The notes under the pieces were generated by a model. That model was not told the DNA's origin, did no database searches, and saw only the letters and a list, made by a program, of their open reading frames with translations. Below are positions 3,432 through 61,040 of a stretch of DNA of 64,000 nt, piece after piece. Origin of the DNA: a virus (taxonomy: Duplodnaviria; Caudoviricetes); the IMG/VR virus record IMGVR_UViG_3300003320_000468, positions 3,678-67,677 of that record; one strand, 5' to 3'. The translations under genes were made by a program, and so were the position numbers. Numbering within the stretch: the stretch's first letter is position 1; every line of letters starts with the position of its first letter.

Positions 3432-4537
3432 TCCGCGTGTCCGTCGCGATCATGGCGCACCCGCGGCGCGCCGCCTTCGTCCCCGAGCTCGAAGCGACGC
3501 TCGACCGGGCCGCCAAGGTCGTATGGGACGACGGCTCCAACTCCCGCTGGGGCACCGGGCGCCGCGCACTCGCCGCCTATGACCCCGCCGCGACCCATCA
3601 CCTCGTTCTCCAGGACGACTCGGTCATCCCGCGAGACCTCGTCGCCGGAGTCGAGCAGATGCTCGCGCACGCCCCCCAGGACGTGCCCGTCTGCCTGTAC
3701 GTGGGGAAGGTCAGGCCGTACAAGGAGATGGTCGCCGAGTACGTCAAGCGCGCTGAGGGCGCGTCGTGGCTGGTCATGGATCGCCTCAACTGGGGCGTTG
3801 CCGTCATCCTCCCCGTCTCGATGATCGAGGCGGTCGTGGCGGCTGGGGACTCACAGACGATCCCGAACTACGACTCCCGCATGTCGACATTCTTCGAGGC
3901 CAAAGGGATTGACGTCTGGTACCCGTGGCCCTCCCTGGTCGACCACCGCGAGTCCCCGTCGCTTGTGCCAGGCCGCGGCCACTCCGGCAGGGTCGCGCAC
4001 CAGTTCATCGGCGCTGAGGCTTCGGCGCTGGACATCGACTACTCGGGCGCGGTCCTGCGCCTGCCGAATGCCGACAGCTACAGGCCAGGAGGTCAGTCCA
4101 CCATGCTGTTCATCTGCGAGAAGTACGACAACTTCTCGATCCCCACCGCGAACGTGAAGTTCAAGGACCACTACTTCGAGGCCACCACACCGGGCCAGGT
4201 CGCGCACCTCCAGATGCCGCACGTCAAGCGCCGCGGCGTCCGCCCGGCCACCGAGGAGGAGGCCACCGCCTGGTACGAGGCGAAGCACCCGGCCGCCGCG
4301 GCGGTGAGCGAGCCCGCTCCCGTCGAGCCGCCCTCGGGCACCGAGGAGGTCAAGGAACCTGCCCCGGTCCCGGCCGAGGGTGTCAAGGTATCCGAGGACG
4401 TCCCTGACGGCACCGCCGACGAGGTCCTCGCGTGGGTCGGCGGCGACTTCGAGCGGGCCGTTGCCGCGGAAGCTGCCGAGCTCGCCGGGAAGCGCCGGAA
4501 GACCCTCCTCGCTGACCTCGCCAAGATCATCGGCTAG
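3428..4537 (+). CDS. GT-A fold glycosyltransferase fused to a C-terminal putative virion-associated domain (internal start at 4103)
   Basis: HLVLQDD and PSLVDH motifs; in-frame ATG 4103 with GGAGG RBS; C-terminal VPDGTADEVLAWVGGD helical module. Confidence 0.7.
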   Translation: MIRVSVAIMAHPRRAAFVPELEATLDRAAKVVWDDGSNSRWGTGRRALAAYDPAATHHLVLQDDSVIPRDLVAGVEQMLAHAPQDVPVCLYVGKVRPYKEMVAEYVKRAEGASWLVMDRLNWGVAVILPVSMIEAVVAAGDSQTIPNYDSRMSTFFEAKGIDVWYPWPSLVDHRESPSLVPGRGHSGRVAHQFIGAEASALDIDYSGAVLRLPNADSYRPGGQSTMLFICEKYDNFSIPTANVKFKDHYFEATTPGQVAHLQMPHVKRRGVRPATEEEATAWYEAKHPAAAAVSEPAPVEPPSGTEEVKEPAPVPAEGVKVSEDVPDGTADEVLAWVGGDFERAVAAEAAELAGKRRKTLLADLAKIIG

Positions 4538-18197: not shown

Positions 18198-18268
18198 GCG
18201 AGCGCTCCTCTCATCCCTCTCAGATTAGTGCATGTGCCAAGCGAGGCGCATAGTCATAGGAGGTGAAC

Positions 18269-19057
18269 ATGGCCTGGAGGCTTGCGAAGTCCCTCGTCGT
18301 CTTCCGCAACGAGCTCAACACCATCGCCCCGAACCGGTCCAAGCGAAGCGACGGCACGATCGGCGACGCCGCCCACGCCGCGTCCGACTCGGACCACAAC
18401 GAGAACGACGCCGGGGTGGTGTGCGCCTTCGACGGCACCCACGACCCCGCGGGCGGTGCCGACATGGCCGCCATCACCGAGTTCTTGCGGCGGAATCCGC
18501 CGCGCGCGCTGAAGTACATGATCTTCAATCGCCGCATCTGCTCTCGCAAGAACGGCTGGAAGTGGGTCGCCTACACAGGCTCGAACCCGCACGACAAGCA
18601 CGCCCACTTCTCCACCGGCGAAGGTCCCGACGGGCACTCGACCGGACCCTACGACGACCAGAGCCCGTGGGGGCTCCTCGACACCAACACCATCGATGGA
18701 GGCATCATGCTCCCCAAGCACGGCGATTCCGGCCCGGAGGTCGGCTACTGGCAGCGGATGCTCATCTCCGCTGGCGAGAAGCTCCCGAAGTACGGCGTCG
18801 ATGAGAAGTTCGGCGACGAGATGGCCGCGGCGATCCTCTCCTGGTACAAGCGCAACGGCGGTGACCCCGCGAAGTTCAACGGCAAGTCCGTGACCGCGTG
18901 GACCGCGAAGTCCCTCCAGGAGAAGGTGTTCGGCGGCCAGGTTACCGAAGCGCAGATCGCCGCCGCCGTCGCGGCCTACCTCAAGGCCAACCCGGTCAAG
19001 CTCCCGGAGAAGATGACCTTCGCGGGCGGTTCGCTGAACGGGATCAAGGCGGGCTAG
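18269..19057 (+). CDS. endolysin (N-terminal Zn-peptidase-like domain plus PG-binding-like domain)
   Basis: SDGTIGDAAH..SDH..AFD..HxH pattern; GDSGPEV..WQ..L..YGVDEKFG; GGAGG RBS. Confidence 0.8.
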   Translation: MAWRLAKSLVVFRNELNTIAPNRSKRSDGTIGDAAHAASDSDHNENDAGVVCAFDGTHDPAGGADMAAITEFLRRNPPRALKYMIFNRRICSRKNGWKWVAYTGSNPHDKHAHFSTGEGPDGHSTGPYDDQSPWGLLDTNTIDGGIMLPKHGDSGPEVGYWQRMLISAGEKLPKYGVDEKFGDEMAAAILSWYKRNGGDPAKFNGKSVTAWTAKSLQEKVFGGQVTEAQIAAAVAAYLKANPVKLPEKMTFAGGSLNGIKAG

Positions 19058-20376: not shown

Positions 20377-20745
20377 ATGTCCCTGCCCGCCACCGACATC
20401 ACCCAGACCGACCTCGCGAACCGGGGCCACTCCCTCGTCCGCACCTACGTCCCGATCGGCGTCGGCTACGCCCTGACATGGCTCGCGGCCTACGGTTTCG
20501 GCGTCGACCCCGACACCCAGAACGCGCTCATCAACGGCCTCGCCACCCTCGGCGGCGCCCTCTGGTACGGCCTCCTCCGCCTCGTCGAGCCCCACCTCCC
20601 GACGTGGGTCCGGATCGTGGTGTTCTGGTCGGCGAAGATGCCGACCTACGCCTCCGCTGAGGCCACGGCCGCGCCGCCGCGCAGGCTCACCGACCCGGAG
20701 ACGGGCGAGGAGGTCCTCGCCTACCTGGTGACCAGCCTCAAGTAG
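20377..20745 (+). CDS. putative holin
   Basis: AAGGAG RBS; 2-3 TM segments (SLVRTYVPIGVG..GALWYGLLR). Confidence 0.65.
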   Translation: MSLPATDITQTDLANRGHSLVRTYVPIGVGYALTWLAAYGFGVDPDTQNALINGLATLGGALWYGLLRLVEPHLPTWVRIVVFWSAKMPTYASAEATAAPPRRLTDPETGEEVLAYLVTSLK

Positions 20746-20765
20746 ACCCGCCAGCGCAAGCAGAT

Positions 20766-20795
20766 GCCCCCGCCGCTCATGTGAGCGGCGGGGGC
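20766..20795 (+). terminator. stem-loop ending the late/lysis operon
   Basis: Perfect 14-bp inverted repeat GCCCCCGCCGCTCA/TGAGCGGCGGGGGC. Confidence 0.65.
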
Positions 20796-21054
20796 GTTGC
20801 GTCGCGCTTGGGAGCGAAGGCCCCGATGTGCTCGGCGCACCTCACGATGAGTCCTCCGACGCACCTGTACTAAATCTGGTCGGTTGAACTAACTCTCGAT
20901 TGCACTTCTGCAACACGGCTACCACCTGGGCGAATACAACCGATTGGGTGGTGTCTTTGTGCGTTTCGGTGGTAGCGCCGGAGGTGATACACCGGTACCG
21001 TGAAACATAAGAGGCAACACCCCTGCGCCACCGCTCAACGATGAGAGGAGCGAC

Positions 21055-21276
21055 TTGCCCGAACGGCCGAGACATCCGAAGAAGGAACTCGAAACCCTCA
21101 TCCAGTGGCTTGAAACGCACGGATGGCGGGTAAAGCGAGATAAGAGATACTATCGGGCGTTCTGTCCGTGCAAGCTACATCAGAAAACGATTCATATTTC
21201 CCCTTCTGACCCTAATTACGAACTGAATCTTCGAAAATGGTTCCTGAGACAACCCTGCTGGGAGGAGGCAACATGA
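21055..21276 (+). CDS. HicA-like small basic protein (putative toxin)
   Basis: 73 aa, RHPKKELE..GWRV..CPC..H..TIH; low GC; GAGGAG RBS with TTG start. Confidence 0.5.
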   Translation: MPERPRHPKKELETLIQWLETHGWRVKRDKRYYRAFCPCKLHQKTIHISPSDPNYELNLRKWFLRQPCWEEAT

Positions 21277-21605
21277 CCACCCGCTTCTACATCGACCTCG
21301 AAGTAATCGCCCGCGGTGCTTCAAGAGGTCAGATGGAAGACATGTTCGAACCCCTCGCCGACGCGCTCTTCGACCTGTCCGACGTCATCGACGCCGACCT
21401 GGGTATGGACACCGGGAAGCGAACGTTCGAGTTCTCCATGGCTGTCGACGCGGACACTGACCGGGACGCCCTCCAGGTCGCTCTGAATGCAGTACGCACC
21501 GCCCTGCACTGCGTCGGAGCGCACACCCCTGGGTGGGAGTCACTGTTCGAGATCATCCGCCGCACGGTATGGAATGAGCCGAGCGGCAACCTGCTGAACG
21601 TGTAA
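21273..21605 (+). CDS. acidic partner protein (putative HicB-like antitoxin)
   Basis: ATGA-coupled to the upstream gene; acidic; GGAGGAGG RBS. Confidence 0.45.
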   Translation: MTTRFYIDLEVIARGASRGQMEDMFEPLADALFDLSDVIDADLGMDTGKRTFEFSMAVDADTDRDALQVALNAVRTALHCVGAHTPGWESLFEIIRRTVWNEPSGNLLNV

Positions 21606-21620
21606 GGTCGCTACAACTTC

Positions 21621-21645
21621 GCGCCCCGCCTTCGTGGCGGGGCGC
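21621..21645. terminator. stem-loop between convergent operons
   Basis: GCGCCCCGCC-TTCGT-GGCGGGGCGC. Confidence 0.65.
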
Positions 21646-21746
21646 TTCGTCGTGTCTGAGGCCGGGCCGCCCTGGTGGTAACTGGCCCCCCGGCGGCCCG
21701 GCCCCGTGAGCCTACGGCCGCGGGCGGTGCGGGCGCCATGGCCCGA

Positions 21747-22130
21747 TCAGGCGCCGCTCTCGTCCGTGCGGGGGACGGCGTAGGCGATGCGGGCGCCGGT
21801 GCGGTCCGCCGCTCTCCATGCCGCAGCCCGGTACCACGCCGCAGAGAGCCTGCGGTCGCCGTACGCGGCCAGCTCGTCGGGGAGCGAGGCCTTCCCGTCC
21901 GGGTAGACGGTGATGGTCGACCCGGCGGGGTGTGCCTCGGCGAGCTGGTCGACCAGGCGGTCGGTGAACGCAACCAGGTCATTCAGCGCGTCCGCCGCGG
22001 CCCGGGTGACGGCGGAATCGCCGCTCTCCCAGCGGTGGACGTTCCGCTCATGCCAGCCGATGGCGAGCGCGAGGTCCCGGACGGTCATCCCCAGTGACTC
22101 CCGCAGACACCGCAGCTCGGCGGTGGTCAT
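21747..22130 (-). CDS. HTH DNA-binding protein (DUF1870/XRE-like)
   Basis: MTTAELRCLRESLGMT..LA..IGW..RNVHRWE. Confidence 0.7.
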   Translation of the reverse strand: MTTAELRCLRESLGMTVRDLALAIGWHERNVHRWESGDSAVTRAAADALNDLVAFTDRLVDQLAEAHPAGSTITVYPDGKASLPDELAAYGDRRLSAAWYRAAAWRAADRTGARIAYAVPRTDESGA

Positions 22131-22210
22131 CAGCAGCGGGTGTTCCACGGTGGCCTTCCGGTATGTAGGTGGGGCGGTTGGGATCACGATAGCTGGTCCC
22201 GCGGGCCATG

Positions 22211-24187
22211 TCAGCCCCTGCACTGGGGGTGCCCGCAGTTCGCCTCGAAACCGACGGCGTGGTAATGGCCGGTGCCGACGCGCACGGCGGTACCGTCGGC
22301 GACGAACTGCCGCAGCCGCTGCTCGACGAGGGATGTGGAGACCTCGATCTGGTAGTGGGCGGCGTGCGGGATGATCTCGGCGGTCCGCCACGCCCCGGCG
22401 CGGAGCGCGAGGAGCACGGCCTGGGTTTTCTCGGGGTACTCCTCGGCCGGGGCTTCCTCGTCGGGGCCGCCGAGACGCAGCGACGGCAGCGCATCAACGG
22501 CGGTCTTCTTGGCGTCCTTCTTCGCGGCCTGGTCGAACTCGTCGAGGCCCGCGGGGTCCATCTGGCCGCTGCCCGCCGCAGTGCAGGCGGCGAGGAACGC
22601 CTCGTCGTTCTCGTCGGCCTCGGCGCGATCCTGGTCGCGACGGGCGAATGCGGCACCGAGCGCACCAACCTCCTCGACGGGGAGGTCGGCGAATTCGCAG
22701 GTCGCTTCGAGGTGTTCGAGCCATGCCAGACCTGGATTCATGCCGTCGAAGTCGTCTTCGTGCCCGAGCCAGAACGCCCTGATGGGGGCGGCGCGGGTGA
22801 TCAACTTGCCCTTGACGCGCAGCTCCTTCACGTACCCGAACCCGGGGGTGCCGGAGGGGAGGGTACTCGGGTCGAACTCGTTGTTGCCGGACAGGCGGCC
22901 CTGCTGCTTGGACGAGGAGTAGAAGTAGACGACGTTGCGGGACATGAACTGCGCCCGCAGGTCGTTGTTACCGCCGAATGCGGGAAGGCCGACATTCTGG
23001 GTGCCGACGAGGAAGATCCCGCCGACCTTCCGGAGGGTCTTGACCATGTCCACCAGGGTCTTCTGGTCCTCCGGCGAGAGCCCGTTGATGATCTCGTGGA
23101 CCTCGTCCATGAACAGCACGAGCACAGGGTGCTTCTTGGAAAGCTTGTAGCCGTTGCGGCCCATCTTCCGGAACGTGATCTGGCGCAGGCGCCGCCAGCG
23201 CGGGAGCGAGCGGACGAGCTCGGCGGCCTCCTGCACGGAGCGGGCGGTCCACTTGCTGGCTTTCGCGAGTGCCGGGGAGGACATGCCGCCTTGCGGGTCG
23301 ACGTACAGGCCCACGAAGTACCCGGATGCGAGGAGGGAGAGCCCGACCTGTTCCATGCACGCGGATTTGCCGGTGCCGACGTCCCCGGAGAACAGGACCC
23401 CGAACGCGCCGTTGTCGTCGACGACCGACAGGGAGGCGGGGGCGCGGTCGGCGTCGTAGAGCCCGAACGTCACCAGCCCGGTCTCGGGGTCGAAGCTGGG
23501 CCCGGGGTACATGGCCGGGGGGCGTTCGGCGGCGCCGGTGATGACGGTGAGCTTCCCGGAGGCGGCGGTGCGTCCGCGGGTGATGGTGATGTTCTCCTCG
23601 GGGACGTCGAGCGCGGAGGCGATCTGCGCTTTCTGGGCGGTGAGCTGGCTGTAGGTGTGCTTGCCGCGGACGAAGAGGACGTTGAAGTCGTGGACGAGCC
23701 CGTTGGTTCTGACGAGCGCGAGGACGGTGCCTTTGAGGGGCCCGTCGGCGGCGACGTACTCGGTCCAGTCGTCGAGTACCGCGGCCGCCGCAGCGAGCGA
23801 GGCGCCGCTGTCCTCCTCGGTCTCCTCTTCTGCGATGGTGGTCCGGGTGCGCTGCCAGGCGGGCCAGAACGCGCCGATGGCGGTGGCCCAGACGGCGGTG
23901 AGGAGCCACGACCACCCGAGGACGGCGAACAGCCCAGCCCAGACGGCGGCGGTGGCGACAGCGGCGAGCGCGGGGCGGCGCCCGGCCGCGGTGCGGGAGC
24001 GGATGACGAGGGCCGCGACACCGGCGGCGAGGCCGATGGCGATGAACGCTGGGAAGTGCCCAGCGGCGGATTGGAGTCCCCACAGCGGGAACGCCGCGGC
24101 GTAGACGGCGATACCCGTCTTGAGCGGGAGCCCACGCCCGGGCGGCGCGGGTGTGGCCTGGTCGGGCCGGGTCAGGGTGTCGGTCAC
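22211..24187 (-). CDS. TraB-like FtsK/SpoIIIE DNA translocase
   Basis: N-terminal TM helices, Walker A GDVGTGKS, Walker B VLFMDE, GTQ motif, C-terminal winged-helix-like domain. Confidence 0.8.
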   Translation of the reverse strand: MTDTLTRPDQATPAPPGRGLPLKTGIAVYAAAFPLWGLQSAAGHFPAFIAIGLAAGVAALVIRSRTAAGRRPALAAVATAAVWAGLFAVLGWSWLLTAVWATAIGAFWPAWQRTRTTIAEEETEEDSGASLAAAAAVLDDWTEYVAADGPLKGTVLALVRTNGLVHDFNVLFVRGKHTYSQLTAQKAQIASALDVPEENITITRGRTAASGKLTVITGAAERPPAMYPGPSFDPETGLVTFGLYDADRAPASLSVVDDNGAFGVLFSGDVGTGKSACMEQVGLSLLASGYFVGLYVDPQGGMSSPALAKASKWTARSVQEAAELVRSLPRWRRLRQITFRKMGRNGYKLSKKHPVLVLFMDEVHEIINGLSPEDQKTLVDMVKTLRKVGGIFLVGTQNVGLPAFGGNNDLRAQFMSRNVVYFYSSSKQQGRLSGNNEFDPSTLPSGTPGFGYVKELRVKGKLITRAAPIRAFWLGHEDDFDGMNPGLAWLEHLEATCEFADLPVEEVGALGAAFARRDQDRAEADENDEAFLAACTAAGSGQMDPAGLDEFDQAAKKDAKKTAVDALPSLRLGGPDEEAPAEEYPEKTQAVLLALRAGAWRTAEIIPHAAHYQIEVSTSLVEQRLRQFVADGTAVRVGTGHYHAVGFEANCGHPQCRG

Positions 24188-24210
24188 GTCCGCTCCTCGG
24201 GCTAGGGGTC

Positions 24211-24236
24211 GGGGCGGCCGGTCACCCGGCCGCCCC
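24211..24236. other. intergenic stem-loop upstream of traB-like gene
   Basis: GGGGCGGCCGG-TCAC-CCGGCCGCCCC, 11-bp perfect stem. Confidence 0.55.
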
Positions 24237-24247
24237 TGTCAGTGGGT

Positions 24248-25282
24248 TTACTGGGCGTTGTCGGAGTACTCGTCGCGCGCGAGGTTCTCGCGGCCGACGC
24301 CGTCGCGGGTGTCCTTGACGACCAGCTGCGCGTCGTGCGCGGCGAGGATCGCGGCCAGGTGCGTCTGGGCGGCGGCGGACTGGTCGGTGAGGGCCGCGGC
24401 GGCGATGTCGTGCGCTTCGGAGAGCGTGACGAGGGTGTCGACGATGGTGGACTGGATCTCGGCGAGCGCGCCGGCGGCCGCGGCGGCCGCGGGCATGTCG
24501 AGGCGGCGCATGTCGGCGGCGGCGGTCTCGGTGGCGTTGATGTTGGACCGGACCTCGTTGATCCGTTCGCCGATCTCGCCGGCGCGGGCGGTGAGGGTGT
24601 CCGCCATGGCGGCGGCGGTGTCCATGACGGTCTTGAGCTGGTCGTGGAAGGTCTTGACGGCGGCGGGGCCGGTGATCTCTCCGGTGGTCATGGTGAGGTT
24701 CTCCTTGGTGTCGGTGTTGTCGGTCGGTGCGTATGGGGACCAGGGCTCAGCCCGGACCCACGGGTCGGGGATCGTGTCGGGGACGCTGGTGTCGTCCATG
24801 AGGTCCGCGTTCGAGTCGAAGTGGTCGTCGACGGTGGGGACGGGCTCGGGGAGGACCGAGGGCGGCTCGGCGAGCGGCTCCTCCGCAGGCGCCTCCCACG
24901 GCACCGGTCGCCCGTTCTCGCCGCGCGGCGGGAACAGCGGCGGCATCGTGTCGGGGTCGATGCCCTGGTCGATCAGCCCGAGCCGGTATTCGTGCTCCTT
25001 GCGGGCGCGGGCGACGTCCTCGTCGGTCGCGAGGCCCGCGAGCTTGAGGGCCTTCGTGCGGGCCAGGTGCTTGCGGGCGGCGCGCGCGTCGGCGGCGGTG
25101 AGCAGCCCGGAGGCTTTGACGGCGTGGTGGTGGTCGGCAAGGGCCTGCCACCGGTCGTCGAGGTAGCCGCGCAGGCCGCGGCGCTCAGACCGGGGCTCCT
25201 GTCCGCGGCCTGCGCGGACGGCGTCTTCGACGGCGCCGGCCAGCACCCAGGCGATGGCGCCGACGACGAGCAAAGTGACCAT
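24248..25282 (-). CDS. membrane-anchored transfer/spread-associated protein with internal start at 24691
   Basis: N-terminal hydrophobic helix, Pro-rich linker, in-frame AAGGAG-N9-ATG, Ala-rich helical C-terminus. Confidence 0.65.
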   Translation of the reverse strand: MVTLLVVGAIAWVLAGAVEDAVRAGRGQEPRSERRGLRGYLDDRWQALADHHHAVKASGLLTAADARAARKHLARTKALKLAGLATDEDVARARKEHEYRLGLIDQGIDPDTMPPLFPPRGENGRPVPWEAPAEEPLAEPPSVLPEPVPTVDDHFDSNADLMDDTSVPDTIPDPWVRAEPWSPYAPTDNTDTKENLTMTTGEITGPAAVKTFHDQLKTVMDTAAAMADTLTARAGEIGERINEVRSNINATETAAADMRRLDMPAAAAAAGALAEIQSTIVDTLVTLSEAHDIAAAALTDQSAAAQTHLAAILAAHDAQLVVKDTRDGVGRENLARDEYSDNAQ

Positions 25283-25308
25283 GGTGTTCTCCTTTCAGAT
25301 TGGGTCGG

Positions 25309-25845
25309 TTAGGAACTGGCGTCGGCGGTCTCGCGCTTGCCGCCCTTCTTGGTGCGGAACTTGACGTTGATGAACCACATCGCGACGAACACCGTGCAGA
25401 GGCTGAACAGCGAGATCGAGCCGAGCGCGATGTTCAGCAGCGGGTAGACCAGGACCGAGACGATCCACATGAGCAGGTGCCCGCTGGGCTTCCCGGAGTT
25501 CGGCTCCAGGCCGCCGGGGGCGATGTAGTCGGCGAGGAGGAACACCGCGGCAACGGCGACGGCGAGGACTCCGACGCCGCCCAGCGCCCAGTTGGCTCCT
25601 TCGGTCACCCGCTCCAGGAGCCAGGCGCGGCCGTCGTTGAACCAGTCGGCGACGGTCCCGGTGAACGACGTGGCGCCGTAGCCGACGGCGGTGAGTGCGA
25701 GGCACTGGACCTTCGGGGCGTACTTGAGGGTCGCGTGAACGAACTTGCCTCTGTCCCGCCACGGGAGGATGAGCCCGTAGACGACGAAGATCGCGAGCGC
25801 GATGCCCAGGACGGTCAGGTTGAGGTGTCCGGTGATGATGTCCAT
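25309..25845 (-). CDS. multi-TM membrane protein (Spd-like)
   Basis: 178 aa, about 4-5 TM segments, basic tail; AAGGA RBS. Confidence 0.65.
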   Translation of the reverse strand: MDIITGHLNLTVLGIALAIFVVYGLILPWRDRGKFVHATLKYAPKVQCLALTAVGYGATSFTGTVADWFNDGRAWLLERVTEGANWALGGVGVLAVAVAAVFLLADYIAPGGLEPNSGKPSGHLLMWIVSVLVYPLLNIALGSISLFSLCTVFVAMWFINVKFRTKKGGKRETADASS

Positions 25846-25856
25846 GGACGGTGTCC

Positions 25857-26738
25857 TTACTCGGTGGCTTTGATGACGGCGGGGATGACGATGACGGTGG
25901 ACACCCAGTAGCCCAGGACCGTCCACCAGGCGAGCGTGGACGCGTCCACGGGACCGGTCAGGGCGGCGAGCGTCCACAGGAGCGCGGTCGCGGACGTCCC
26001 GACAAGCCGCCACTTGGTGTGTCCGGTGCGGTCGAGGACGCGGGCGGCGATGGACAGGGGGACGCCGACGCCGCAGACGAGCGCGATCTCGGTGGCCCGG
26101 TCGAACCCGGTGCGGGCGGCGACGGAGTCCCATGCGGCGTGGTAGACCGCGCGCACCGGCGCGAGCGGCTGGTCGACGATCTCGTAGACGTTGAGCCAGG
26201 CGACGGCGCGCCGCCAACTCCACACTTGGGCCGCCGCCGCGGGTGTGGAGTGTGGCGTTTCGGGGGCCTCGGTACGGTCCTGACCTGCATCCGCCGCTCC
26301 CGCAGGGGCGTTCTCCGGGTGTGGAGTGCGGAGTGTGGAGTCGGGCTCCACGACGGCCTCCGGCGGCGCCTGCGGGGCGCTCACGGGCTCCGGCGCGGGA
26401 GCCGCAGGGACCTCAACGGGCGCCGCGGGTTCGACGGCGGCAGGGGCCTCCGGCTCGGGTTCGGGTGCCGGGGCGGGCTCGGCTGCGGTCGGTGCCATGA
26501 ACGCGAGCACCTCGTCCACGGCGGCGTCGAATCCGTCCGCGTCCACTGCACCGTCCGGGCCCGCGTCCGCCGTCGAGGTGTCCTCCTGGGGCTCGTCCGC
26601 GTGTCCGCGTCCGCCCTCGATGACGACCGGACGCCACCCGGCCGCGTCCGCGTGGACGGCGGACGGGCGCGCGTCCGCGTACGGCGTCCAGAACCCGTCC
26701 ATGTCCGCATCCCGCTGCGGTGTCCTGTCCTGCGTCAC
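25857..26738 (-). CDS. Pro/Ala/acidic protein with C-terminal TM segments (Spd-like)
   Basis: Repetitive N-terminal half, hydrophobic C-terminus; AAGGAG RBS. Confidence 0.6.
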   Translation of the reverse strand: MTQDRTPQRDADMDGFWTPYADARPSAVHADAAGWRPVVIEGGRGHADEPQEDTSTADAGPDGAVDADGFDAAVDEVLAFMAPTAAEPAPAPEPEPEAPAAVEPAAPVEVPAAPAPEPVSAPQAPPEAVVEPDSTLRTPHPENAPAGAADAGQDRTEAPETPHSTPAAAAQVWSWRRAVAWLNVYEIVDQPLAPVRAVYHAAWDSVAARTGFDRATEIALVCGVGVPLSIAARVLDRTGHTKWRLVGTSATALLWTLAALTGPVDASTLAWWTVLGYWVSTVIVIPAVIKATE

Positions 26739-28000
26739 GCGGACGCTCCTTCCAGATCGGCCGCCGCTTCGGCGAGCGCCTCAGCTTCGAGCGCCGCGAG
26801 ATCGGTGCGCTCGTCGGTCATCCACTTGTGCGCGGTCGACTTGCTCCACAGCGGCGCGCCGTCGTCCCCGAGGGGCGCCGCGTCGCCGAGCTGGCGGACC
26901 GAGGGCCGCTTGCCGAGCGCGAGATACAGGCGCTTGAACGCCGCCTCGAAGTCGGCGGGCGAGATCTTCCCGGCGGCCCGGCGGGGCTTCCGCGGCGCCG
27001 CCGGTACGGCAGGCAGTACGGGCGCCGCGGGGAGCGCGGGCAGGCGGAGGAACTCCGGGGCTACCGGCTTCGCGACCGCGGCCGTCGGCGCAGCTTCGGC
27101 GGGCGCCGGGGCGGTGCGCTGCTCGATCTGGTGCCGGATGAACTCCGGGGCGGTGCGCTCGACGGCGGTGAACCGGCGGTACAGGCGCCGCTCAACCTCC
27201 TCCTCGGTGTCCTGGTCCCACAGGCCGCGGGCGTCGAGGCCGTCCATGAGTTCCTGCTGCTTCTCTTCCAGGGCCTCGCGGAGCGGGCGGCGCAGCCCGC
27301 GCCAGCGGGTCTTGCCGGGCTCGGCGTTGTGGAGGCGGTGGACGCAGCGCACGTACCGGGTGATGCGCCGCTGCCGGTCGAGCTCGTTCGTGTCCTCCTC
27401 GGTCGGAGTCCACAGGCGCAGGGCGACCGCGGCCCGCAGGAACATGCGGGTGAGCCACGAGCGGGCGGCGCTGTCGCCGTGCTCGTGGGCCTGCTCGGCG
27501 GCGAGGGCGATCTCCCAGGCGAGCGCGGCCACGTAGGCGGGGATTGCGGCGAACCAGGAGCCCTCGCCCCACCAGGAGGCCGCGGCCATGAGCGTCGCGA
27601 GCCCGAAGGTCAAGTAACGGTAGGGGTCGAACTTCCCGGGGTGCTTCATGCGCTGCCGGTAGGACAGGCCCGCCGAGATCGCCATGAAGACCTCGAACAT
27701 GACGAAGGCGCAGACCTTCTCGATCGTCGCGTCGTAGCCGACCTTGTGGAGCGCGCCCCGGATGCCCTTGTTGGACATGACGGTCGCGGCGAGGGCGACG
27801 ACACCGACGGCCATGAAGATGGTGCGGCGCGCGGAGGGGCGGCTGAGGTCGCGGGTTGCGTTCCAGAGCGCTTTGGCGGCCTTGACGATGCCGACGAGGA
27901 GCGCGACGGCGACGACGGCCCCGGCGCCGAAGAGCACGGCCTGTACGGGATCGCTGAAAGGGACGCCGGTCCACTGCTCAAGTAGGGTGGGAGGTGCCAT
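26735..28000 (-). CDS. DUF2637/SpdA-like membrane protein with C-terminal HTH-like segment
   Basis: Several N-terminal TMs, coiled coil, C-terminal RPSVRQL..SKSTAHKW; start may be 28018. Confidence 0.6.
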   Translation of the reverse strand: MAPPTLLEQWTGVPFSDPVQAVLFGAGAVVAVALLVGIVKAAKALWNATRDLSRPSARRTIFMAVGVVALAATVMSNKGIRGALHKVGYDATIEKVCAFVMFEVFMAISAGLSYRQRMKHPGKFDPYRYLTFGLATLMAAASWWGEGSWFAAIPAYVAALAWEIALAAEQAHEHGDSAARSWLTRMFLRAAVALRLWTPTEEDTNELDRQRRITRYVRCVHRLHNAEPGKTRWRGLRRPLREALEEKQQELMDGLDARGLWDQDTEEEVERRLYRRFTAVERTAPEFIRHQIEQRTAPAPAEAAPTAAVAKPVAPEFLRLPALPAAPVLPAVPAAPRKPRRAAGKISPADFEAAFKRLYLALGKRPSVRQLGDAAPLGDDGAPLWSKSTAHKWMTDERTDLAALEAEALAEAAADLEGASA

Positions 28001-28096
28001 CGCTTGGGGCCAATCCAATCGGTGGTCGCAGCCCTGCCGGAGCGCCGCTCGGGTGGGGCTGTTGTCGTATCGGCCAACGAAGGCCGCGCCATGCTA

Positions 28097-28115
28097 TATG
28101 GCGACTGTCGCCATA
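28097..28115. promoter_or_regulatory. palindromic operator candidate upstream of the tra/spd genes
   Basis: TATGGCGAC-T-GTCGCCATA perfect inverted repeat in a lower-GC intergenic gap. Confidence 0.55.
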
Positions 28116-28219
28116 CAGTCTGACATACGGTGCAGCGGGTGTCCACCCCGGTCCATGGACGCTGTCCACCGGGCACGACGAAGGCCCCGCCCGGACGGAC
28201 GGAGCCTCGGATCGCGCGT

Positions 28220-28666
28220 TCAGCTCGTGGCGGAGATGACGGCCGCGGCGGCGGTGATGAGCGCGAGCGCGCCGAGGAGGATCGCGACCTCGATCCAGCC
28301 CCATTTGGCGGCGAGGATCGCCTGGAGCCGCCGCACCTCCGCGGCATACCCCGCCTCGGCGGTCGCACCCCCAGCGGCACGCTGCTGCGCGGCGGCGATG
28401 ATCGCGGCGCGGGACTGGCGGCGCTGGAGTCCGCGGGGGCGGCGGGGCAGGAGCGCGGCACCGATCGGTGCGGCCATGGCGACCGCGAGGATCAGCGCCC
28501 ACGCCCCGAGGGTCCGGGCCTCCCCGGCGAGCCCGGCGAGGAGCCCGGACGCAGCCAGCGCACCGCCCGGCGCGAGGAGGAGGAGCGAGGCTTTCTGGTC
28601 GGCGTGGCGGGTGGTCTCACGGAGCGAGGCGATCTGGGATCGGAGCTCGTCGGTCGTGGTCGGCAT
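28220..28666 (-). CDS. DUF5706/Pycsar-effector-like membrane protein
   Basis: RHADQKAS motif before TM1, K..W before the last TM; three TM segments. Confidence 0.6.
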   Translation of the reverse strand: MPTTTDELRSQIASLRETTRHADQKASLLLLAPGGALAASGLLAGLAGEARTLGAWALILAVAMAAPIGAALLPRRPRGLQRRQSRAAIIAAAQQRAAGGATAEAGYAAEVRRLQAILAAKWGWIEVAILLGALALITAAAAVISATS

Positions 28667-28721
28667 GCTGGTCTCCCGGGGTGTTGGCGGCCCGGGACGT
28701 GAGCCCCGGGCCGCAGGGTGG

Positions 28722-29219
28722 TTAGGCCGCCGCGCGGGTGCGGTAGGCGGCCACGGCGGCGGTGAGGATCGTGTCGTGGTCGAATCCGAGGCCGGTCGCG
28801 CGCGCCTCGGCGACGTTCACGAACCGGGCCTCCGTGGCGTCGGAGCCGGCCACGAGCCCGTGTACCGGCCCCTCGTGGAACGGCGGGACGGCTGCGTGCG
28901 GGGCGAGGTAGGCGGCGGTGATGACGCGGCCCCGCGGGTCGCGGTCGACCGCGGAGTAGGTGCCGATGAGGACGAGGTTGCTGGGATTCGCGAGTGCGGC
29001 GGTCTCCTCGCGGAGTTCGCGGCAGGCGGCGTCCTCCAGGGACTCGTCGTCGGGTTCGAGGTGCCCGCCGGGGAGGACGTACGCGCCCTCGAACGGGGGC
29101 TTGCCGCGCCGGACGAGGAGGACTTCCAGGTCGCTGTCGTCCTCGCGGGGCGTGTAGATGATGGGGACGATCACCGCGATGTCGACAGTGAGGAGGTAGA
29201 GGTGGCGGTCTTCGGTCAT
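28722..29219 (-). CDS. Nudix hydrolase (ADP-ribose pyrophosphatase/Pif-like)
   Basis: Nudix box GGHLEPDDESLEDAACRELREET; RDPR and FDH motifs. Confidence 0.85.
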   Translation of the reverse strand: MTEDRHLYLLTVDIAVIVPIIYTPREDDSDLEVLLVRRGKPPFEGAYVLPGGHLEPDDESLEDAACRELREETAALANPSNLVLIGTYSAVDRDPRGRVITAAYLAPHAAVPPFHEGPVHGLVAGSDATEARFVNVAEARATGLGFDHDTILTAAVAAYRTRAAA

Positions 29220-29298
29220 GTTGCTCCTTGGGGTTGTGGCCCGGGCCAGTCTCGGGCCTCCGGGGGGGTACTCACCCGGCGAGTACCCCCGGGCCGGT

Positions 29299-29451
29299 CT
29301 ACTTGGCGTGGCGGCCCTTCGGCCGGTCGGCCTGGTCCTTCGGCTTGTCGTCCTTCTTGTGGTTGACGACGACCTTGCCCTTCGATCCGTCGCCGACCGC
29401 ACCGATGTTCACGGTGTTGCCGTCGCCGACCGCGGCGATGTTCTTGCCCAT
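29299..29451 (-). CDS. 50 aa hypothetical protein with NIxAVGDG repeat
   Basis: GAGAGGA RBS; MGKNIAAVGDGNTVNIGAVGDGSK...; absent from the supplied ORF track. Confidence 0.5.
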   Translation of the reverse strand: MGKNIAAVGDGNTVNIGAVGDGSKGKVVVNHKKDDKPKDQADRPKGRHAK

Positions 29452-29759
29452 GTGTTGTCCTCTCGGGTTGGGTGGGCCCCGGTTGAGCGAGGCCTTCGGT
29501 TGGTCAGAAGTCGCCGTGCGACGGTGAGGTCGTGGCAGGTGCCGTTCCGACCGTGCGCCTTGTAGTCGTCGTCGGTCTCGAAGTCGACGTTCTCCCGCCC
29601 GGAGAAGAAGACGATGCGGTTGCCCGCGTCGTGGAGAGCCTGGACGGTCCTGATGACCGGCCAGTTCGGGAGGTCGGCGTCGGCAAGGTGGTAGTGGAAC
29701 GGGTCCCTGTCACCCTTGAGGGCGATGGTGCCGTCGATGTCGACGATGACGTAGCTCAT
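29409..29759 (-). pseudogene. truncated HAD 3'-phosphatase (PNKP C-terminal-like)
   Basis: VDIDGT motif I and FSGR motif II present; later motifs absent, sequence runs into the next gene. Confidence 0.6.
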
Positions 29760-29803
29760 GAGGTTCCTCTCGGGCGGGCCCCAGTTGCCCGGGGCCCTGG
29801 GTC

Positions 29804-30211
29804 CTAGTGGTCGAGGGCGGTGGTGAGGAGCCAGTCGACGGCGTCGGCGAGGCTCATGTCCCGATCGCTGGCCCAGTCGGCGACGCGGGCGGCGATGGCG
29901 AGCGACAGTTCGACCGTGGCCGGCTCCTCGACGGCCGGATCCTCCACATCGTCGTCGGCGAGCTCGTCCTCGGTGACCAGCGTCAGGACGACGCGGTCGC
30001 TGTCGTCGGAGACGATCCCCCACACAGTCTTGGTAGCCCACTTGAAGTTGGTGACGAACCGGGCGGCGCTTGCGAGGGACCTTGCCGACTCGACGGGACG
30101 CGCTTCGCTGTAGGTGTGCTCCTTGACGACGCCGTCGATGGTGAGGGTGATGTGGATGTCGCGCCCGGCCTCGGTGGCGGTACTGGTGGCGGTTCCGGCG
30201 GTGACGTTCAT
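29804..30211 (-). CDS. hypothetical protein, first gene of the leftward operon
   Basis: GAGAGGAG RBS; C-terminal short helical segment. Confidence 0.55.
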   Translation of the reverse strand: MNVTAGTATSTATEAGRDIHITLTIDGVVKEHTYSEARPVESARSLASAARFVTNFKWATKTVWGIVSDDSDRVVLTLVTEDELADDDVEDPAVEEPATVELSLAIAARVADWASDRDMSLADAVDWLLTTALDH

Positions 30212-30244
30212 TTCGGGGCTCCTCTCGGGGGTATGCATCTATTA

Positions 30245-33736: not shown

Positions 33737-35287
33737 GTGTATGATCAAGTGATGTTCGACCTACGTGGTTGCCCCGCATGCGGCTACGCCCGCGCCTCCT
33801 TCGACGATGCCGCCGGAACCTCCCAAGGTGGCCGGTCAGTCGAAAGCCAGAGCGTCGAGATCGACGCCACCGGCAACGATCTCGGCGTAAACCTGATCGA
33901 GGTCTACTGCGACAACAACGCCTCCGCGTCCGGGCACGCCAGAAAGTCCCGTGACGATTGGGAACGGCTCTTGGCTGATGTGGGCGCGGGCAAGTACCGG
34001 CTCATCATCTTGTGGGATGCCTCGCGCGGCAGCCGGGAGCTGCTGGACTGGATCGGTTTCCTGGGGCTGCTTCGCGACCAGAGGATGCTGGTGCACCTGA
34101 TCACGCACGGCCGCACCTATGACCCGGCGAACTCCCGGGACTGGAAGATTCTTGTCCAAGAGGGCGTCGAGGCGCATTCGCAAGCGGACGTGATCTCCGA
34201 GAACGTCAAGCGGGGCAACAAGAGGGCCCGCCAGAAGGGCCGACCGCACGGACATCCGCCGTTCGGGTGGAGGCGAGTCTACGACCCCGCTTCCGGGAAG
34301 ATGGAGACGCAGAAACCGGTCGAGGAGCAACAGGCCCAGTTGTTGGACATGTTCACGCTCCTCGTGTCCGGTGAGAAGCCCACTAGGATCGCGATCGAGA
34401 TGAACCGCCGCATCCTGCACCCGGAGGAGGGCGAACAGGGCTACCGGACGGCGTTCGGGAACCTGTGGAGGGCGGACGCAGTCCGGCGAATCCTGCTGAG
34501 CCCGACGCATATCGGGAAGATCCGTGACCCCGACACTGGCGAACTGATCGAGGGGAACTGGGACGGCACGATCAGGGAGGACATTTGGTGGGCGGCCCAG
34601 GAGATCCTGGAGCATCGCGCGAAACGCTCGAATGCGCGCACATACCTGTTGACGGGCTACGCGGGATGCGGGGTGTGCGGGTCGTGGACCGTGGCGCAGG
34701 GGCCCCGCGGGCGCAAGAACCTGTCGTGCGCTGGTGTGGACGAGACCGGTGCGCCGGATGGTCGCGGGTCCACTCACAACCTCGCGATCCGGATGGACTG
34801 GGTCGATGATTACGTCATCGGCTACATCCTCCGTCGCATGTGCGACCTGGACTTTATCCGGTCCTTGACAGCGGATGCGGGCGAGAAGCGCGCGGCGGCG
34901 CTGGCGGAGGCGCGGCGGTTGCAGGCGGAGTTGGAGGAGATGTGGGCCAAGGTCGAGGCGCGCGAGCCCGGGTACAAGTTCGACCGGGTGGCAGCCCTGG
35001 AGGCGTCGTGGGAGCCGGAGATCAAGCGGCTTGAGGAGGAAGCGGCGGCAGGGTTGAGCGTCGGCAGAGCTCTGGCCCTGGAGTTCGCCCGCATGGTCGA
35101 AGACTCAGGCGCCGAAGGACAAGAGCTCCTGGAGTTGCTCCGGGAGGCGTGGGATGAGACTCCTCTTGGGGGGAGGCGTGAGCTGGTGCGCATCTACACG
35201 AAGTCGATCACGATCTATCCGCGCAAGCAGCGAGGAAAGAAGTTCGATCCGACCCGGGTGGTCATTGAGCCGGCGGCGTTCGCATAG
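33737..35287 (+). CDS. large serine integrase
   Basis: YARAS catalytic motif, WDASRGSR, G.PPFGW recombinase domain, CGVCG..C zinc ribbon, coiled coil; exact start uncertain. Confidence 0.9.
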   Translation: MYDQVMFDLRGCPACGYARASFDDAAGTSQGGRSVESQSVEIDATGNDLGVNLIEVYCDNNASASGHARKSRDDWERLLADVGAGKYRLIILWDASRGSRELLDWIGFLGLLRDQRMLVHLITHGRTYDPANSRDWKILVQEGVEAHSQADVISENVKRGNKRARQKGRPHGHPPFGWRRVYDPASGKMETQKPVEEQQAQLLDMFTLLVSGEKPTRIAIEMNRRILHPEEGEQGYRTAFGNLWRADAVRRILLSPTHIGKIRDPDTGELIEGNWDGTIREDIWWAAQEILEHRAKRSNARTYLLTGYAGCGVCGSWTVAQGPRGRKNLSCAGVDETGAPDGRGSTHNLAIRMDWVDDYVIGYILRRMCDLDFIRSLTADAGEKRAAALAEARRLQAELEEMWAKVEAREPGYKFDRVAALEASWEPEIKRLEEEAAAGLSVGRALALEFARMVEDSGAEGQELLELLREAWDETPLGGRRELVRIYTKSITIYPRKQRGKKFDPTRVVIEPAAFA

Positions 35288-37231: not shown

Positions 37232-37304
37232 TGCGGCTTAGCGCAGTTGGTAGCGCATCCGGCTCATACCCGGGAGGTCGTGGGTTCGATCCCCACCGCC
37301 GCTA
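37232..37304 (+). tRNA. tRNA-Met(CAT), initiator-like but atypical
   Basis: Cloverleaf; anticodon CAT 37265-37267; GTGGG-TTCGATC-CCCAC T arm; U1:U72 and U7:C66 mismatches; CCA not encoded. Confidence 0.85.
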
Positions 37305-37397
37305 CGACACAAGAAAAGAGGGCCGCGATCTCGCGAACTGTTTGCCCAGTTCACGCGCGGCCCTCCGGACAACCAGATCTAGTGGAAGAGGAAGTCC

Positions 37398-47472: not shown

Positions 47473-48417
47473 ATGGCCCGCATCCGCACGATCAAGCCCG
47501 AGTTCTTCACGAGCCTGACGATCGCCGACCTCCCCGAGGTGGAGACGCGCCTGACGTTCATCGGCCTGTGGACGCACGTCGACGACGAAGGCCGCTGCGT
47601 CGATGACGCCCGGCTCGTCAAGGCGGCGATCTGGCCGCTGGACGACCGCACCTCACATGACGTCGAACTCGACTTGAAGTGGCTCAGTGAGTCCTCACTG
47701 ATCACTCGCTACAAGGTCGGTGAGCGCTCCTTCATTCAGGTCACGAACTGGCGTGAGCACCAGAAAATCAACCGTCCGACCCGATCGAAGTTCCCTCCGG
47801 TCGAACAGGCCACCGAAATCGTGGGCGCGCCTGCACCTGCCTCATCCTCGCAGCCTTCTACCAGCAGTGATGAGTCCTCACCCTCAAAGCGTGAGGGGAA
47901 CACGGAGGACTCAGTGAGTGCTCATGGAGACCTCACTGGCGGAAAGGAACAGGGAACAGGGAACAGGGAACAGGGAAAGGAAGAAGCTAACGCTCCTTCG
48001 TCGGAGACGGGCAAGCCGTCCCGCGACGACGTCGAACGTGTCTGCAACCACCTCGCGGACTGGGTCGAGAAGAACGGATCGAAGCGACCGAACATCACGA
48101 AAAAGTGGCGCGATGCCGCTCGCCTGATGATCGACACCGACAAGCTGACCGAAGAGCAGATCCGCAAGGCCATCGACTGGTGCCAGCAGGACGAGTTCTG
48201 GCGCGCCAACATCATGTCCCTGCCGACCCTTCGCAAGCAGTTCGATCGACTCCGTCTCGCTGCTCAGCGCAAGAGCGGCCATGCGGCTCCGCAAGGCCCT
48301 GAGTCCACGGCGCCGAAGCGGCTGACCGAATCCGAGAAGTGCCCCGAGCACCGCCGCGCGCTCCCGTGCGGCCTGTGCAAGGCCGAACAGATGGGCAGGA
48401 ACCAGCATGCAGCTTGA
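47473..48417 (+). CDS. replication initiator/replisome organiser
   Basis: MARIRTIKPEFF, LWTHVDDEGR, FW..NI.S..LRK.FD.L; upstream of DnaB. Confidence 0.85.
   Translation: MARIRTIKPEFFTSLTIADLPEVETRLTFIGLWTHVDDEGRCVDDARLVKAAIWPLDDRTSHDVELDLKWLSESSLITRYKVGERSFIQVTNWREHQKINRPTRSKFPPVEQATEIVGAPAPASSSQPSTSSDESSPSKREGNTEDSVSAHGDLTGGKEQGTGNREQGKEEANAPSSETGKPSRDDVERVCNHLADWVEKNGSKRPNITKKWRDAARLMIDTDKLTEEQIRKAIDWCQQDEFWRANIMSLPTLRKQFDRLRLAAQRKSGHAAPQGPESTAPKRLTESEKCPEHRRALPCGLCKAEQMGRNQHAA
47946..47973 (+). repeat. GGAACAG x4 tandem repeat (candidate origin iterons)
   Basis: Four exact 7-mers inside the initiator gene. Confidence 0.6.
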
Positions 48418-60895: not shown

Positions 60896-60980
60896 GCCGC
60901 ACTGCCGGAACGGCATACGGACCCGGACCACCGGGTGCCAGCTACGCGCTGGCGTCAGGGTTCAAATCCCTGGTGCGGCA
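60896..60980 (+). ncRNA. class II (tRNA-Leu-like) tRNA with a 4-nt anticodon loop
   Basis: Perfect acceptor (GCCGCAC/GTGCGGC), D, anticodon, variable and T stems; TTCAAAT T loop; A73; loop is only ACCA. Confidence 0.8.
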
Positions 60981-61040
60981 CCTACCCATATCGGCACCGC
61001 CGACACACCAACCCGCCACCAACCGCCCGGGAGGTGCCTC

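Follow-up and report, generated by a model that had tools for sequence, protein, structure and literature searches.

A candidate Tra/Spd-like DNA transfer operon in the genome of temperate, integrating Glycomyces phages

Can an ordinary integrating siphophage carry a transfer operon for double-stranded DNA of the type found on Streptomyces plasmids? The question is raised by a leftward (minus-strand) operon that runs from position 30238 to 21747 of a 64,000-nucleotide stretch of tailed-phage DNA, here called the window, which comprises bases 3678-67677 of a single 67,677-bp IMG/VR virus contig (IMGVR_UViG_3300003320_000468). The operon lies between a convergent virion/lysis block and an immunity/integrase region. 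An earlier note, made from the sequence alone, had described in it a 658-amino-acid (aa) ATPase, four membrane proteins, a Nudix hydrolase and a helix-turn-helix (HTH) gene, and all of these genes were found on the minus strand when the window was analysed by frame-specific GC content at third codon positions (GC3) and translation of open reading frames (ORFs). We assign a probability of roughly 55% to the reading that this block is a Streptomyces-plasmid-type transfer (Tra/Spd-like) operon for double-stranded DNA that belongs to the core genome of temperate, integrating siphophages of Glycomyces, a filamentous actinomycete of soil. Judged by sequence, its ATPase and Nudix genes are homologous to transfer-region genes of conjugative plasmids from Streptomycetaceae and Pseudonocardia. 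Virion-independent spread of phage DNA is plausible, and where the ATPase binds, what the accessory proteins do and that phage DNA is the cargo are points that we only infer. The features on which the argument turns are the following.

22211..24187, minus strand: 658-aa TraB-like FtsK-family ATPase
24248..25282, minus strand: gene D, 344 aa (transmembrane (TM) prediction)
25309..25830, minus strand: gene C, 173 aa, four TM helices (TM prediction)
25857..26738, minus strand: gene B, 293 aa (TM prediction); 4-nt overlap between its start and the 3' end of gene A
26735..28018, minus strand: gene A, 427 aa (TM prediction, alignment A4)
26441..26745, in the 5' part of gene B: direct-repeat array of G[CT]GGAC with the core ACGCGGAC (k-mer clustering in the genome)
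28220..28666, minus strand: 148-aa membrane protein with 3-4 TM helices (TM prediction)
28722..29222, minus strand: Nudix hydrolase (Pfam NUDIX, 1.5e-16)

The ATPase and its plasmid-borne relatives

The ATPase appears to be a membrane-anchored motor with a DNA-binding end. Hydropathy peaks at residues 44-104 and helices at residues 22-116 of an AlphaFold2 model (mean predicted local distance difference test score, pLDDT, 76) mark an N-terminal membrane region; the model comprises four N-terminal helices, a beta-rich pre-ATPase domain and a RecA-like core. Walker A (GDVGTGKS, residues 268-275) and Walker B (VLFMDE, residues 357-362) are, together with other motor residues, invariant in 18 aligned family members that are 39-79% identical to the protein of the window, and the alignment also shows a conserved stretch after the motor. 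Residues 586-644 are modelled as a helix-helix-helix-hairpin (pLDDT 79-91), a fold predicted to be a DNA-binding winged helix. Foldseek ranked TcpA, an FtsK-like coupling protein for conjugation encoded by pCW3, at the top (3e-15), followed by the FtsK motor (1e-12) and EccC/EssC (5e-9). At the sequence level, a phmmer search against PDB sequences returned nothing and a profile search returned FtsK only (E 0.026); the Pfam family PF01580 (FtsK_SpoIIIE) did not match the protein.

The protein ends in a GHYH...C-x4-C motif (residues 640-656; window 22211-22290) that is invariant in all 18 aligned relatives and may form a zinc knuckle after the winged helix. On large plasmids, by contrast, a separate small gene annotated as 'RRQRL motif-containing zinc-binding protein' is found downstream of the Tra-like gene, immediately so in pLS2-1 and at a distance of about 2-3 kb in pFRL1 and a Kitasatospora plasmid, while the phage ATPase carries its own terminal HxH...Cx4C. 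In pSSPS4.7a a zinc-binding protein gene is located between the Pycsar-effector and Nudix genes.

A set of 5.8 billion proteins contained 29 close relatives of the ATPase (39-78% identity, 650-737 aa), all full length and unannotated, and those with a named source came from Glycomyces. When one genome per prokaryotic species was scanned, the gene was detected in two Glycomyces species and on one tiny contig of a metagenome-assembled genome only. Neither the block nor the ATPase nor the 427-aa gene A protein matched INPHARED phages in megablast and tblastn searches (E<=1e-3 for the ATPase), and gene A had no match in PLSDB. With the ATPase, tblastn against PLSDB matched 105 plasmids, 91 of them from Streptomyces. 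The wider family is large: an exhaustive phmmer search yielded 454 clusters of 600-800-aa proteins with the same architecture. Among 60 of its members scanned with Pfam, FtsK_SpoIIIE was recognized in nine, FtsK_gamma in two, and several had winged-helix matches (MarR_2 in six).

Like-for-like hhalign comparisons of the ATPase profile A1 (probability, E-value and further details as given) placed the protein among its candidate relatives as follows.

pLS2-1: 100%, 2e-40, 584 columns, full length
PhiNon1 ATPase: 99.5%, E 2e-23
pFRL1: 98%, 1.6e-13
Annotated TraB of the GntR-traA-traB plasmid pSSPS4.7a: 97%, 1.3e-10, pre-ATPase domain included
pIJ101 Tra: 92%, score 61, through the C-terminal winged helix
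phiZL12 gp071: 82%, E 1e-5
Host FtsK: 90%, 1.3e-6, score 59, motor only
Host EccC domains: 92-94%, 1e-7, scores 63-68, motor or motor plus the stretch just after it

The alignments with host FtsK and EccC leave out the pre-ATPase domain and the C-terminal winged helix. With the TraB of pSSPS4.7a, the phage protein has the motifs IASALDVP and M[YW]PGP in common, and the Tra-like protein of pLS2-1 was retrieved with the ATPase profile by hmmsearch at 8e-52. In a tree built on the motor region, the phage ATPases form a clade (Shimodaira-Hasegawa-like approximate likelihood ratio test support 99) inside a plasmid-borne family (90-93), apart from host FtsK and from the EccC domains, which constitute a clade of their own. 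The comparison of 22211-24187 with Tra, FtsK and EccC proteins that had been proposed as a check thus had a mixed outcome. The description as TraB-like stood for the TM/motor/winged-helix architecture and for plasmid Tra-like proteins, which are closer than FtsK and EccC, but not for the experimentally studied pIJ101 Tra, which is no closer than these. We regard the ATPase, on sequence grounds, as a very divergent FtsK-family translocase of a plasmid-associated branch with TraB architecture, whose link to experimentally proven Tra proteins appears real but remote.

The gene neighbourhoods of the plasmid-borne relatives partly resemble that of the phage gene. In pFRL1, genes for GntR, WhiB and DUF2637 proteins are found upstream of the homologue, and in pLS2-1 of Pseudonocardia a row of hypothetical-protein genes headed by WhiB precedes it. 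Three wider-family members (P0031, P0033, P0035) were found on short contigs, and the contexts of two of them were uninformative. On the metagenome contig L011, which carries P0033 and is plasmid-like, the Tra-like ATPase shares the contig with a MOB relaxase, MobC, ParA and a resolvase. For a protein of the double-stranded DNA pump type, the company of relaxase-type mobilization genes is unusual.

Accessory genes and a candidate recognition site

Genes A to D are located directly upstream of the ATPase gene and are separated by short gaps or overlap. Gene A, which occupies the position of SpdB/DUF2637 genes, codes for a protein that begins with TM helices, is charged in its middle part and has a conserved HTH-like segment at the C-terminus. 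The gene B product has an Asp/Pro/Ala-rich N-terminal part and 2-3 C-terminal TM helices, and that of gene D an N-terminal TM anchor, a Pro-rich linker and a C-terminal helical domain; gene C is kept in all seven loci. None of the four belongs to a Pfam, PHROG, NCBIfam or PADLOC family, apart from two marginal PADLOC matches of gene D (E ~0.006-0.008). Spd genes are considered too diverse to be assigned by homology (Thoma et al., PMC4447253). Since similarity to Spd proteins was likewise not detected with hidden Markov models (HMMs), 'Spd-like' refers here to position and membrane character only. Accordingly, of the claim that the four membrane proteins include a DUF2637/SpdA-like one, the four TM proteins beside the ATPase were confirmed and the family label was not: DUF2637 (PF10935) had no Pfam match on the proteins, their homologues or the six-frame translation of the genome. 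Language-model and structure-based neighbours offer a lead for gene A, which in the ESM Atlas is near DUF2637 clusters (0.93, with 215 features in common, and a structural TM-score of 0.51 against a DUF2637 model) and near HTH_SpdB_C/SpdB_N clusters (0.85-0.88), the latter being in line with its C-terminal HTH-like segment. When HMMs of genes A-D were run against six-frame ORFs of pFRL1, pLS2-1 and pIJ101, one match was obtained, which we dismissed as a low-complexity hit with high bias.

The published cis-acting loci of transfer (clt) are arrays of 5-9-bp direct repeats to which Tra binds with its winged helix (PMC3583192). No 8-mer of the entire phage genome clusters more strongly than ACGCGGAC, which has six of its 12 copies in 26535-26744 at the junction of genes A and B. 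GCGGAC is present at 10 copies per 300 bp in the array, as compared with a genome mean of 0.53 (standard deviation 0.89) and a maximum of 3 elsewhere. Codon usage is also biased, as Ala-Asp is encoded by GCG GAC in six of six cases within the array versus 19% of the 83 Ala-Asp pairs elsewhere. Furthermore, G[CT]GGAC is not tied to one codon phase: the window has it in two phases and four of five loci have it in all three, with Gly-Gly-Arg, Arg-Gly-His and Gln-Arg-Thr encoded in the other phases, and it is almost confined to the sense strand (window, L002, L004, L008, L010). In each of the six loci of the close clade (window, L002, L004, L008, L010, L020), a peak of 10-15 copies per 300 bp is found where gene B begins. 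The array is absent from the plasmids compared, and the 3' end and downstream region of the ATPase gene (20700-22400), searched for a clt-type repeat, contained short repeats at chance level only. Taken together, these patterns make the array a suggestive candidate for a cis-acting transfer (clt-like) site.

Two further repeat families were noted. The pair GTGTGGAG/CTCCACAC has four of its five genome copies at 26218-26340, inside gene B and downstream of the main array. In pLS2-1, 17 copies of TCCGGACC are found within 400 bp (L006:356-760) about 8 kb upstream of the Tra-like gene, and this array is likely to be the clt of that plasmid.

The Nudix hydrolase was confirmed and resembles Nudix proteins of plasmid transfer regions: apart from its Pfam match, it is 39% identical (E 4e-25) to the Nudix protein encoded beside traA/traB on pSSPS4.7a, and 95 Streptomyces plasmids carry Nudix genes that share about 40% identity with it. 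On the 10-kb pSSPS4.7a the gene order is 'Pycsar system effector family protein', zinc-binding protein, Nudix, further genes, GntR, traA and traB. Two Kitasatospora plasmids have a Nudix gene 3-5 kb from the Tra-like gene, and pZL12 also links the two. Among the phage relatives, a Nudix gene is present near the operon in L003, L004, L008 and L009 and there is none nearby in L002 and L010. Pif of pSAM2 is a Nudix protein that acts as a transfer-immunity factor, and by analogy the phage enzyme is a candidate for a similar role.

The neighbouring 148-aa TM protein had been labelled DUF5706-like, which proved a weak label: Pfam gave no match, and residues 6-68 weakly matched the PADLOC model PycTM (Pycsar TM effector, DUF5706 type; E 1.3e-3). 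In BLASTP, its similarity to the plasmid 'Pycsar effector family' protein reached only E 0.22. The earlier note lists no cyclase gene, and no search aimed at one was made here. The plasmids nevertheless pair a gene annotated as 'Pycsar system effector family protein' with a Nudix gene near traB.

A conserved module of a complete phage genome

The operon belongs to the genome of a temperate, integrating siphophage, in agreement with its initial description as part of a full virion, serine integrase and DnaB genome. PHROG searches identified, besides Dit-like and other tail proteins and a dCTP deaminase, the following genes.

696-1874: capsid/protease fusion
8234-11020: tape measure
18263-19057, plus strand: endolysin (phrog_1493), at the operon-facing end of the convergent, rightward virion/lysis block
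33737-35287, plus strand: large serine integrase (phrog_95, 1e-64)
48407-49762: DnaB helicase
61671-63188: large terminase (TerL)

No AAA_31 or ParB_N match, indicative of ParA or ParB, was obtained in the genome. IMG/VR labels the record as linear and 83% complete. The notion that the contig is a fragment was rejected: portal ORFs at its two ends (window 63201-63998; genome bases 35-925, L001) match positions 21-245 and 268-493 of one profile, and the ends have 16 bp in common. We therefore consider the record to be a circularly permuted, essentially complete genome. Joining the ends via the 16-bp overlap produces a frame shift at the junction instead of a single continuous portal ORF, which is probably an assembly artefact. 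Three other features of the genome deserve mention. A phrog_854 glycosyltransferase-like gene (3362-4537) occupies the place in the head block that, judging from position, should belong to a major capsid gene. ARAGORN detected a tRNA-like gene whose anticodon loop is abnormal at 60896-60982, just upstream of those for terminase, and a normal tRNA-Met is located at 37232-37305.

Is the operon a core module of this lineage or a guest? Six related loci with flanks were read, from two Glycomyces genomes and four metagenome or run contigs. In all of them the order A-B-C-D-ATPase is kept, and the operon is flanked by holin, lysin and tail genes at one end and by immunity/integrase genes at the opposite end; one relative resides within a 127-kb Glycomyces contig. 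A prophage with this operon is present in Glycomyces sp. NPDC021274 (loci L002/L017). The integrases differ, being of the serine type in the window and L008 and of the tyrosine type in L004. At the operon of the more distant phage relative L003 there is a WhiB gene, as on plasmids. Around the block, no att-like direct repeats were found, nor was a Rep or second integrase gene found within it. The suggested synteny search thus recovered the same gene order in related phages, and the view that no separate actinomycete integrative and conjugative element (AICE) is present was sustained. Because it adjoins phage lysis and tail genes in six of six related loci, we conclude that the operon is an integral, conserved part of the phage lineage and not a recently inserted AICE.

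The remaining features of the operon are its upstream genes and its distal end.

29804..30238, minus strand: first operon gene, 144 aa, GC3 0.90
29517..29759, minus strand, in the region 29409-29759: remnant of a HAD_PNKP (polynucleotide kinase phosphatase domain) gene (Pfam PF25109)
21747..22223, minus strand: HTH_31/XRE-type (Aca2/MqsA-like) DNA-binding protein, ~158 aa (Pfam HTH_31 1.1e-8, Aca2_YdiL 1.7e-5)
21660..21703, between convergent genes: perfect 12-nt inverted repeat

The 144-aa protein has no match in Pfam, PHROGs, NCBIfam or PADLOC. The HAD_PNKP remnant matches PF25109 with 2.6e-16 over profile positions 3-68 of 143, and its residues 1-81 correspond to a homologue of about 152 aa in a Glycomyces prophage (L002) with 74% identity; tblastn did not find the remainder of that homologue in any frame. 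Since this adjoining gene is truncated, the Nudix/148-aa TM pair seems to be a later-added cassette in this phage, one that may have replaced the 3' half of the HAD gene. At the other end, the start of the HTH gene (~22223) was placed by alignment of homologues and overlaps the 3' end of the ATPase gene. The same HTH gene also follows the ATPase in L002, L008 and L010, and a 130-aa gene takes that place in L004; the HTH protein is a candidate for a kor-like regulator. The inverted repeat is likely to mark the end of the operon. Beyond the HTH gene, three relatives have an ATP-dependent DNA ligase gene (L002:12523-13371, L008:12429-13283, L010:9404-10261), in whose place the window has a 122-aa ORF on the plus strand (21237-21605).

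Proposed function, alternatives and known systems

Based on these features and on the analogy with Streptomyces plasmids we propose the following model. After excision by the serine integrase, or circularization of infecting DNA, the membrane-anchored ATPase would assemble as a ring, and its C-terminal winged helix would bind the G[CT]GGAC array in gene B. The circular, double-stranded genome of the phage could then be pumped through a hyphal contact or a septal cross-wall by the ATPase, and the four co-transcribed membrane proteins would make up a channel or a complex for spreading, as counterparts of Spd proteins. The Nudix protein might, like Pif of pSAM2, stop futile transfer between lysogens, and the translationally coupled HTH protein might control the potentially lethal pump gene in a kil/kor-like manner. 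That an ordinary integrating siphophage indeed moves its excised genome without virions between hyphal compartments or neighbouring mycelia, by means of a TraB-type pump and a hidden clt-like array, is a more demanding proposition to which we give slightly less than an even chance.

Several observations weigh against a transfer function. The would-be cargo is a genome of 67.7 kb, and accessory or defence genes expressed by actinophage lysogens usually sit in the position of this operon. Pfam, PHROG and NCBIfam do not recognize the ATPase beyond sub-threshold P-loop matches, and PF01580, applied to a Glycomyces genome, finds host FtsK and EccC and misses the prophage copy of the ATPase. The score of pIJ101 Tra (61) is no better than those of FtsK and EccC (59-68), and at the base of the tree host FtsK, pIJ101 Tra, small-plasmid TraB and gp071 are unresolved; for these reasons the link to proven conjugative translocases runs via the large-plasmid proteins of pLS2-1, pFRL1 and Kitasatospora, whose function has to our knowledge not been characterized. 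Genes A-D have no HMM or hhalign similarity (probabilities <1%) to SpdB of pIJ101, to SpdB2-position proteins or to the DUF2637 proteins of pFRL1 and PhiNon1. Finally, the G[CT]GGAC array is absent from the distant subclade L003/L009, where the putative recognition helix is conserved, and because it lies in a conserved coding region, selection at the peptide level explains part of it.

What else might the operon do? It could be a prophage exclusion or defence module in which the ATPase complex, the PycTM-like protein and the Nudix protein block incoming phage or plasmid DNA and nothing is exported. Its leftward course between the lysis cassette and the immunity/integrase region, the usual site of lysogen-expressed genes, would suit such a role, as would the weak PADLOC matches to PycTM and PDC-S07 (Nudix) and the apparent addition of the Nudix-PycTM cassette at the cost of the truncated HAD gene. 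We nevertheless consider it unlikely, for PADLOC matched neither the ATPase nor genes A, B and C (gene D being marginal), the ATPase has its nearest relatives in plasmid Tra proteins, which possess a predicted DNA-recognition winged helix, and a conserved cis repeat array is not expected of a defence system. Doubtful, too, is a purely intracellular role, in which an FtsK/SffA-like pump clears or partitions phage DNA across septa or into spores of the same mycelium. The FtsK fold with its gamma-like winged helix is compatible with this, 'DNA segregation' has been proposed for the FtsK-like ORF63 of Thermobifida fusca phage P1312 (PMC4569894), and PhiNon1 is a multicopy self-replicating element (PMC5431353). 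Yet the phage of the window integrates, with a serine integrase and no ParAB, and a relative is found inside the 127-kb Glycomyces contig; an integrated prophage segregates with the chromosome, and the ATPase relatives occur in plasmid transfer regions beside GntR, WhiB and Nudix genes. This explanation overlaps with intramycelial spreading and is hard to tell from the transfer reading by sequence.

Two other explanations appear far less probable. The plasmid relatives of the genes and the local gene flux indicated by the truncated HAD gene are what one might expect of a functionless passenger, left over from an AICE or plasmid that an ancestral phage had captured. Such a remnant is hardly reconcilable with 29 of 29 family members being full length (650-737 aa), with catalytic motifs that are invariant in 18 members at 39-79% identity, or with the A-B-C-D-ATPase order in six loci that have different integrases; att-like repeats and a Rep gene were not found, and no frameshifts or deletions were seen in the operon in the loci read. 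Equally remote is a type VII-like secretion system in which an EccC/EssC-type ATPase and its membrane partners export a helical protein such as the gene D product. The EccC/EssC fold matches (5e-9), the hhalign scores of 63-68 and the C-terminal helical domain of gene D speak for it. Against it stand the single ATPase domain instead of three, the predicted DNA-binding winged helix that aligns with pIJ101 Tra, the separate EccC clade and the N-terminal TM anchor of gene D, and Pfam searches found no WXG100, EccB, EccD or EccE family.

The transfer reading gains from comparison with known systems. The plasmid-phage pZL12/phiZL12 of Streptomyces has, according to the passages in which Zhong et al. 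2010 (J Bacteriol 192:3747) is cited (PMC3583192, PMC4487206), an experimentally shown transfer locus, and its conjugal transfer is reported in one of them to need the main tra gene plus two genes next to it (PMC3583192). Like the phage described here, pZL12 (NC_013420) unites tailed-virion genes and a Tra-type locus on one DNA molecule, with an FtsK/SpoIIIE-like gene (gp071, 725 aa), large genes in its neighbourhood, a membrane protein, a Nudix gene (gp076) and GntR beside structural genes. It differs in being a 90-kb ParAB plasmid-prophage, whereas our phage integrates by a serine integrase and lacks ParAB; moreover, its host order is different, and gp071 is a remote relative of the phage ATPase (hhalign 82%, E 1e-5) that tblastn did not find. 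Closer in layout is PhiNon1 of Nonomuraea, described as a plasmid-phage that integrates at tRNA-Val and also replicates as a multicopy circle, in a paper that leaves transfer genes undiscussed (PMC5431353). In PhiNon1 (N. gerenzanensis, NZ_LT559120, 59,257 bp) the layout is that of our phage: after the gene for a DUF2637 protein come small genes, then those for a 396-aa protein, the ATPase (654 aa) and an HTH protein, and the row converges on lysin, collagen-like and tail genes. The ATPases are homologous with only about 24% identity, and the accessory genes are without detectable homology.

Among plasmids, pIJ101 Tra/KilA, pSVH1 TraB and pSSPS4.7a TraB share with the phage ATPase a TM anchor, an FtsK-like motor and a C-terminal winged helix (PMC4447253, PMC3583192). 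Streptomyces conjugative plasmids further resemble the phage in having a multi-gene membrane-protein operon upstream, a repeat array that may serve for recognition, and a Nudix and a Pycsar-effector-like gene nearby. By contrast, the ATPase is only remotely similar to their Tra proteins (92-97% in hhalign) and is not captured by PF01580, its regulator is of the XRE type instead of GntR, the accessory proteins are unrelated in sequence, and the candidate clt is located inside a membrane-protein gene and not at the tra end. The nearest non-phage relatives of the ATPase, on pLS2-1, pFRL1 and the Kitasatospora plasmid, fall into one group with it in the tree and are preceded by WhiB-led membrane-protein operons; these plasmids have no virion genes. 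In other actinophages, FtsK-like genes have been reported from temperate P1312 of T. fusca, where ORF63 is transcribed leftward near the integrase (PMC4569894), and from Gordonia phages Bowser and Schwabeltier (PMC4982277), with DNA segregation proposed or no function given. These three are likened to our phage by their descriptions; the ATPase of the window had no INPHARED match at E<=1e-3.

The concept of a phage with a plasmid-type transfer locus has thus already been published for pZL12/phiZL12, PhiNon1 carries the same layout, and Thoma et al. 2015 speculated that Spd homologues help phage DNA to spread (PMC4447253). What our analysis adds is a Glycomyces phage lineage, a Tra subfamily that HMM libraries miss, an integrating non-plasmid lifestyle and a candidate array within a membrane-protein gene. 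In practical terms, it supplies a concrete candidate for a recognition site and draws attention to a Tra subfamily, overlooked by current HMM libraries, that comprises 29 close members and, in the wider family, about 450 clusters. If the transfer reading is true, the boundary between phages and conjugative elements would, for filamentous actinomycetes, be blurred in ordinary integrating prophages and not only in rare plasmid-phages. Lysogens could hand a prophage on to neighbours that lack the receptor, or carry an infection through a septated mycelium, and this would alter our picture of host range, of the epidemiology of prophages and of gene flow among soil bacteria that produce antibiotics. 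Lysogeny by conjugation would then extend over several orders of filamentous actinomycetes, represented by Glycomyces, Nonomuraea and Streptomyces, and possibly by Thermobifida if ORF63 of P1312 is of this kind.

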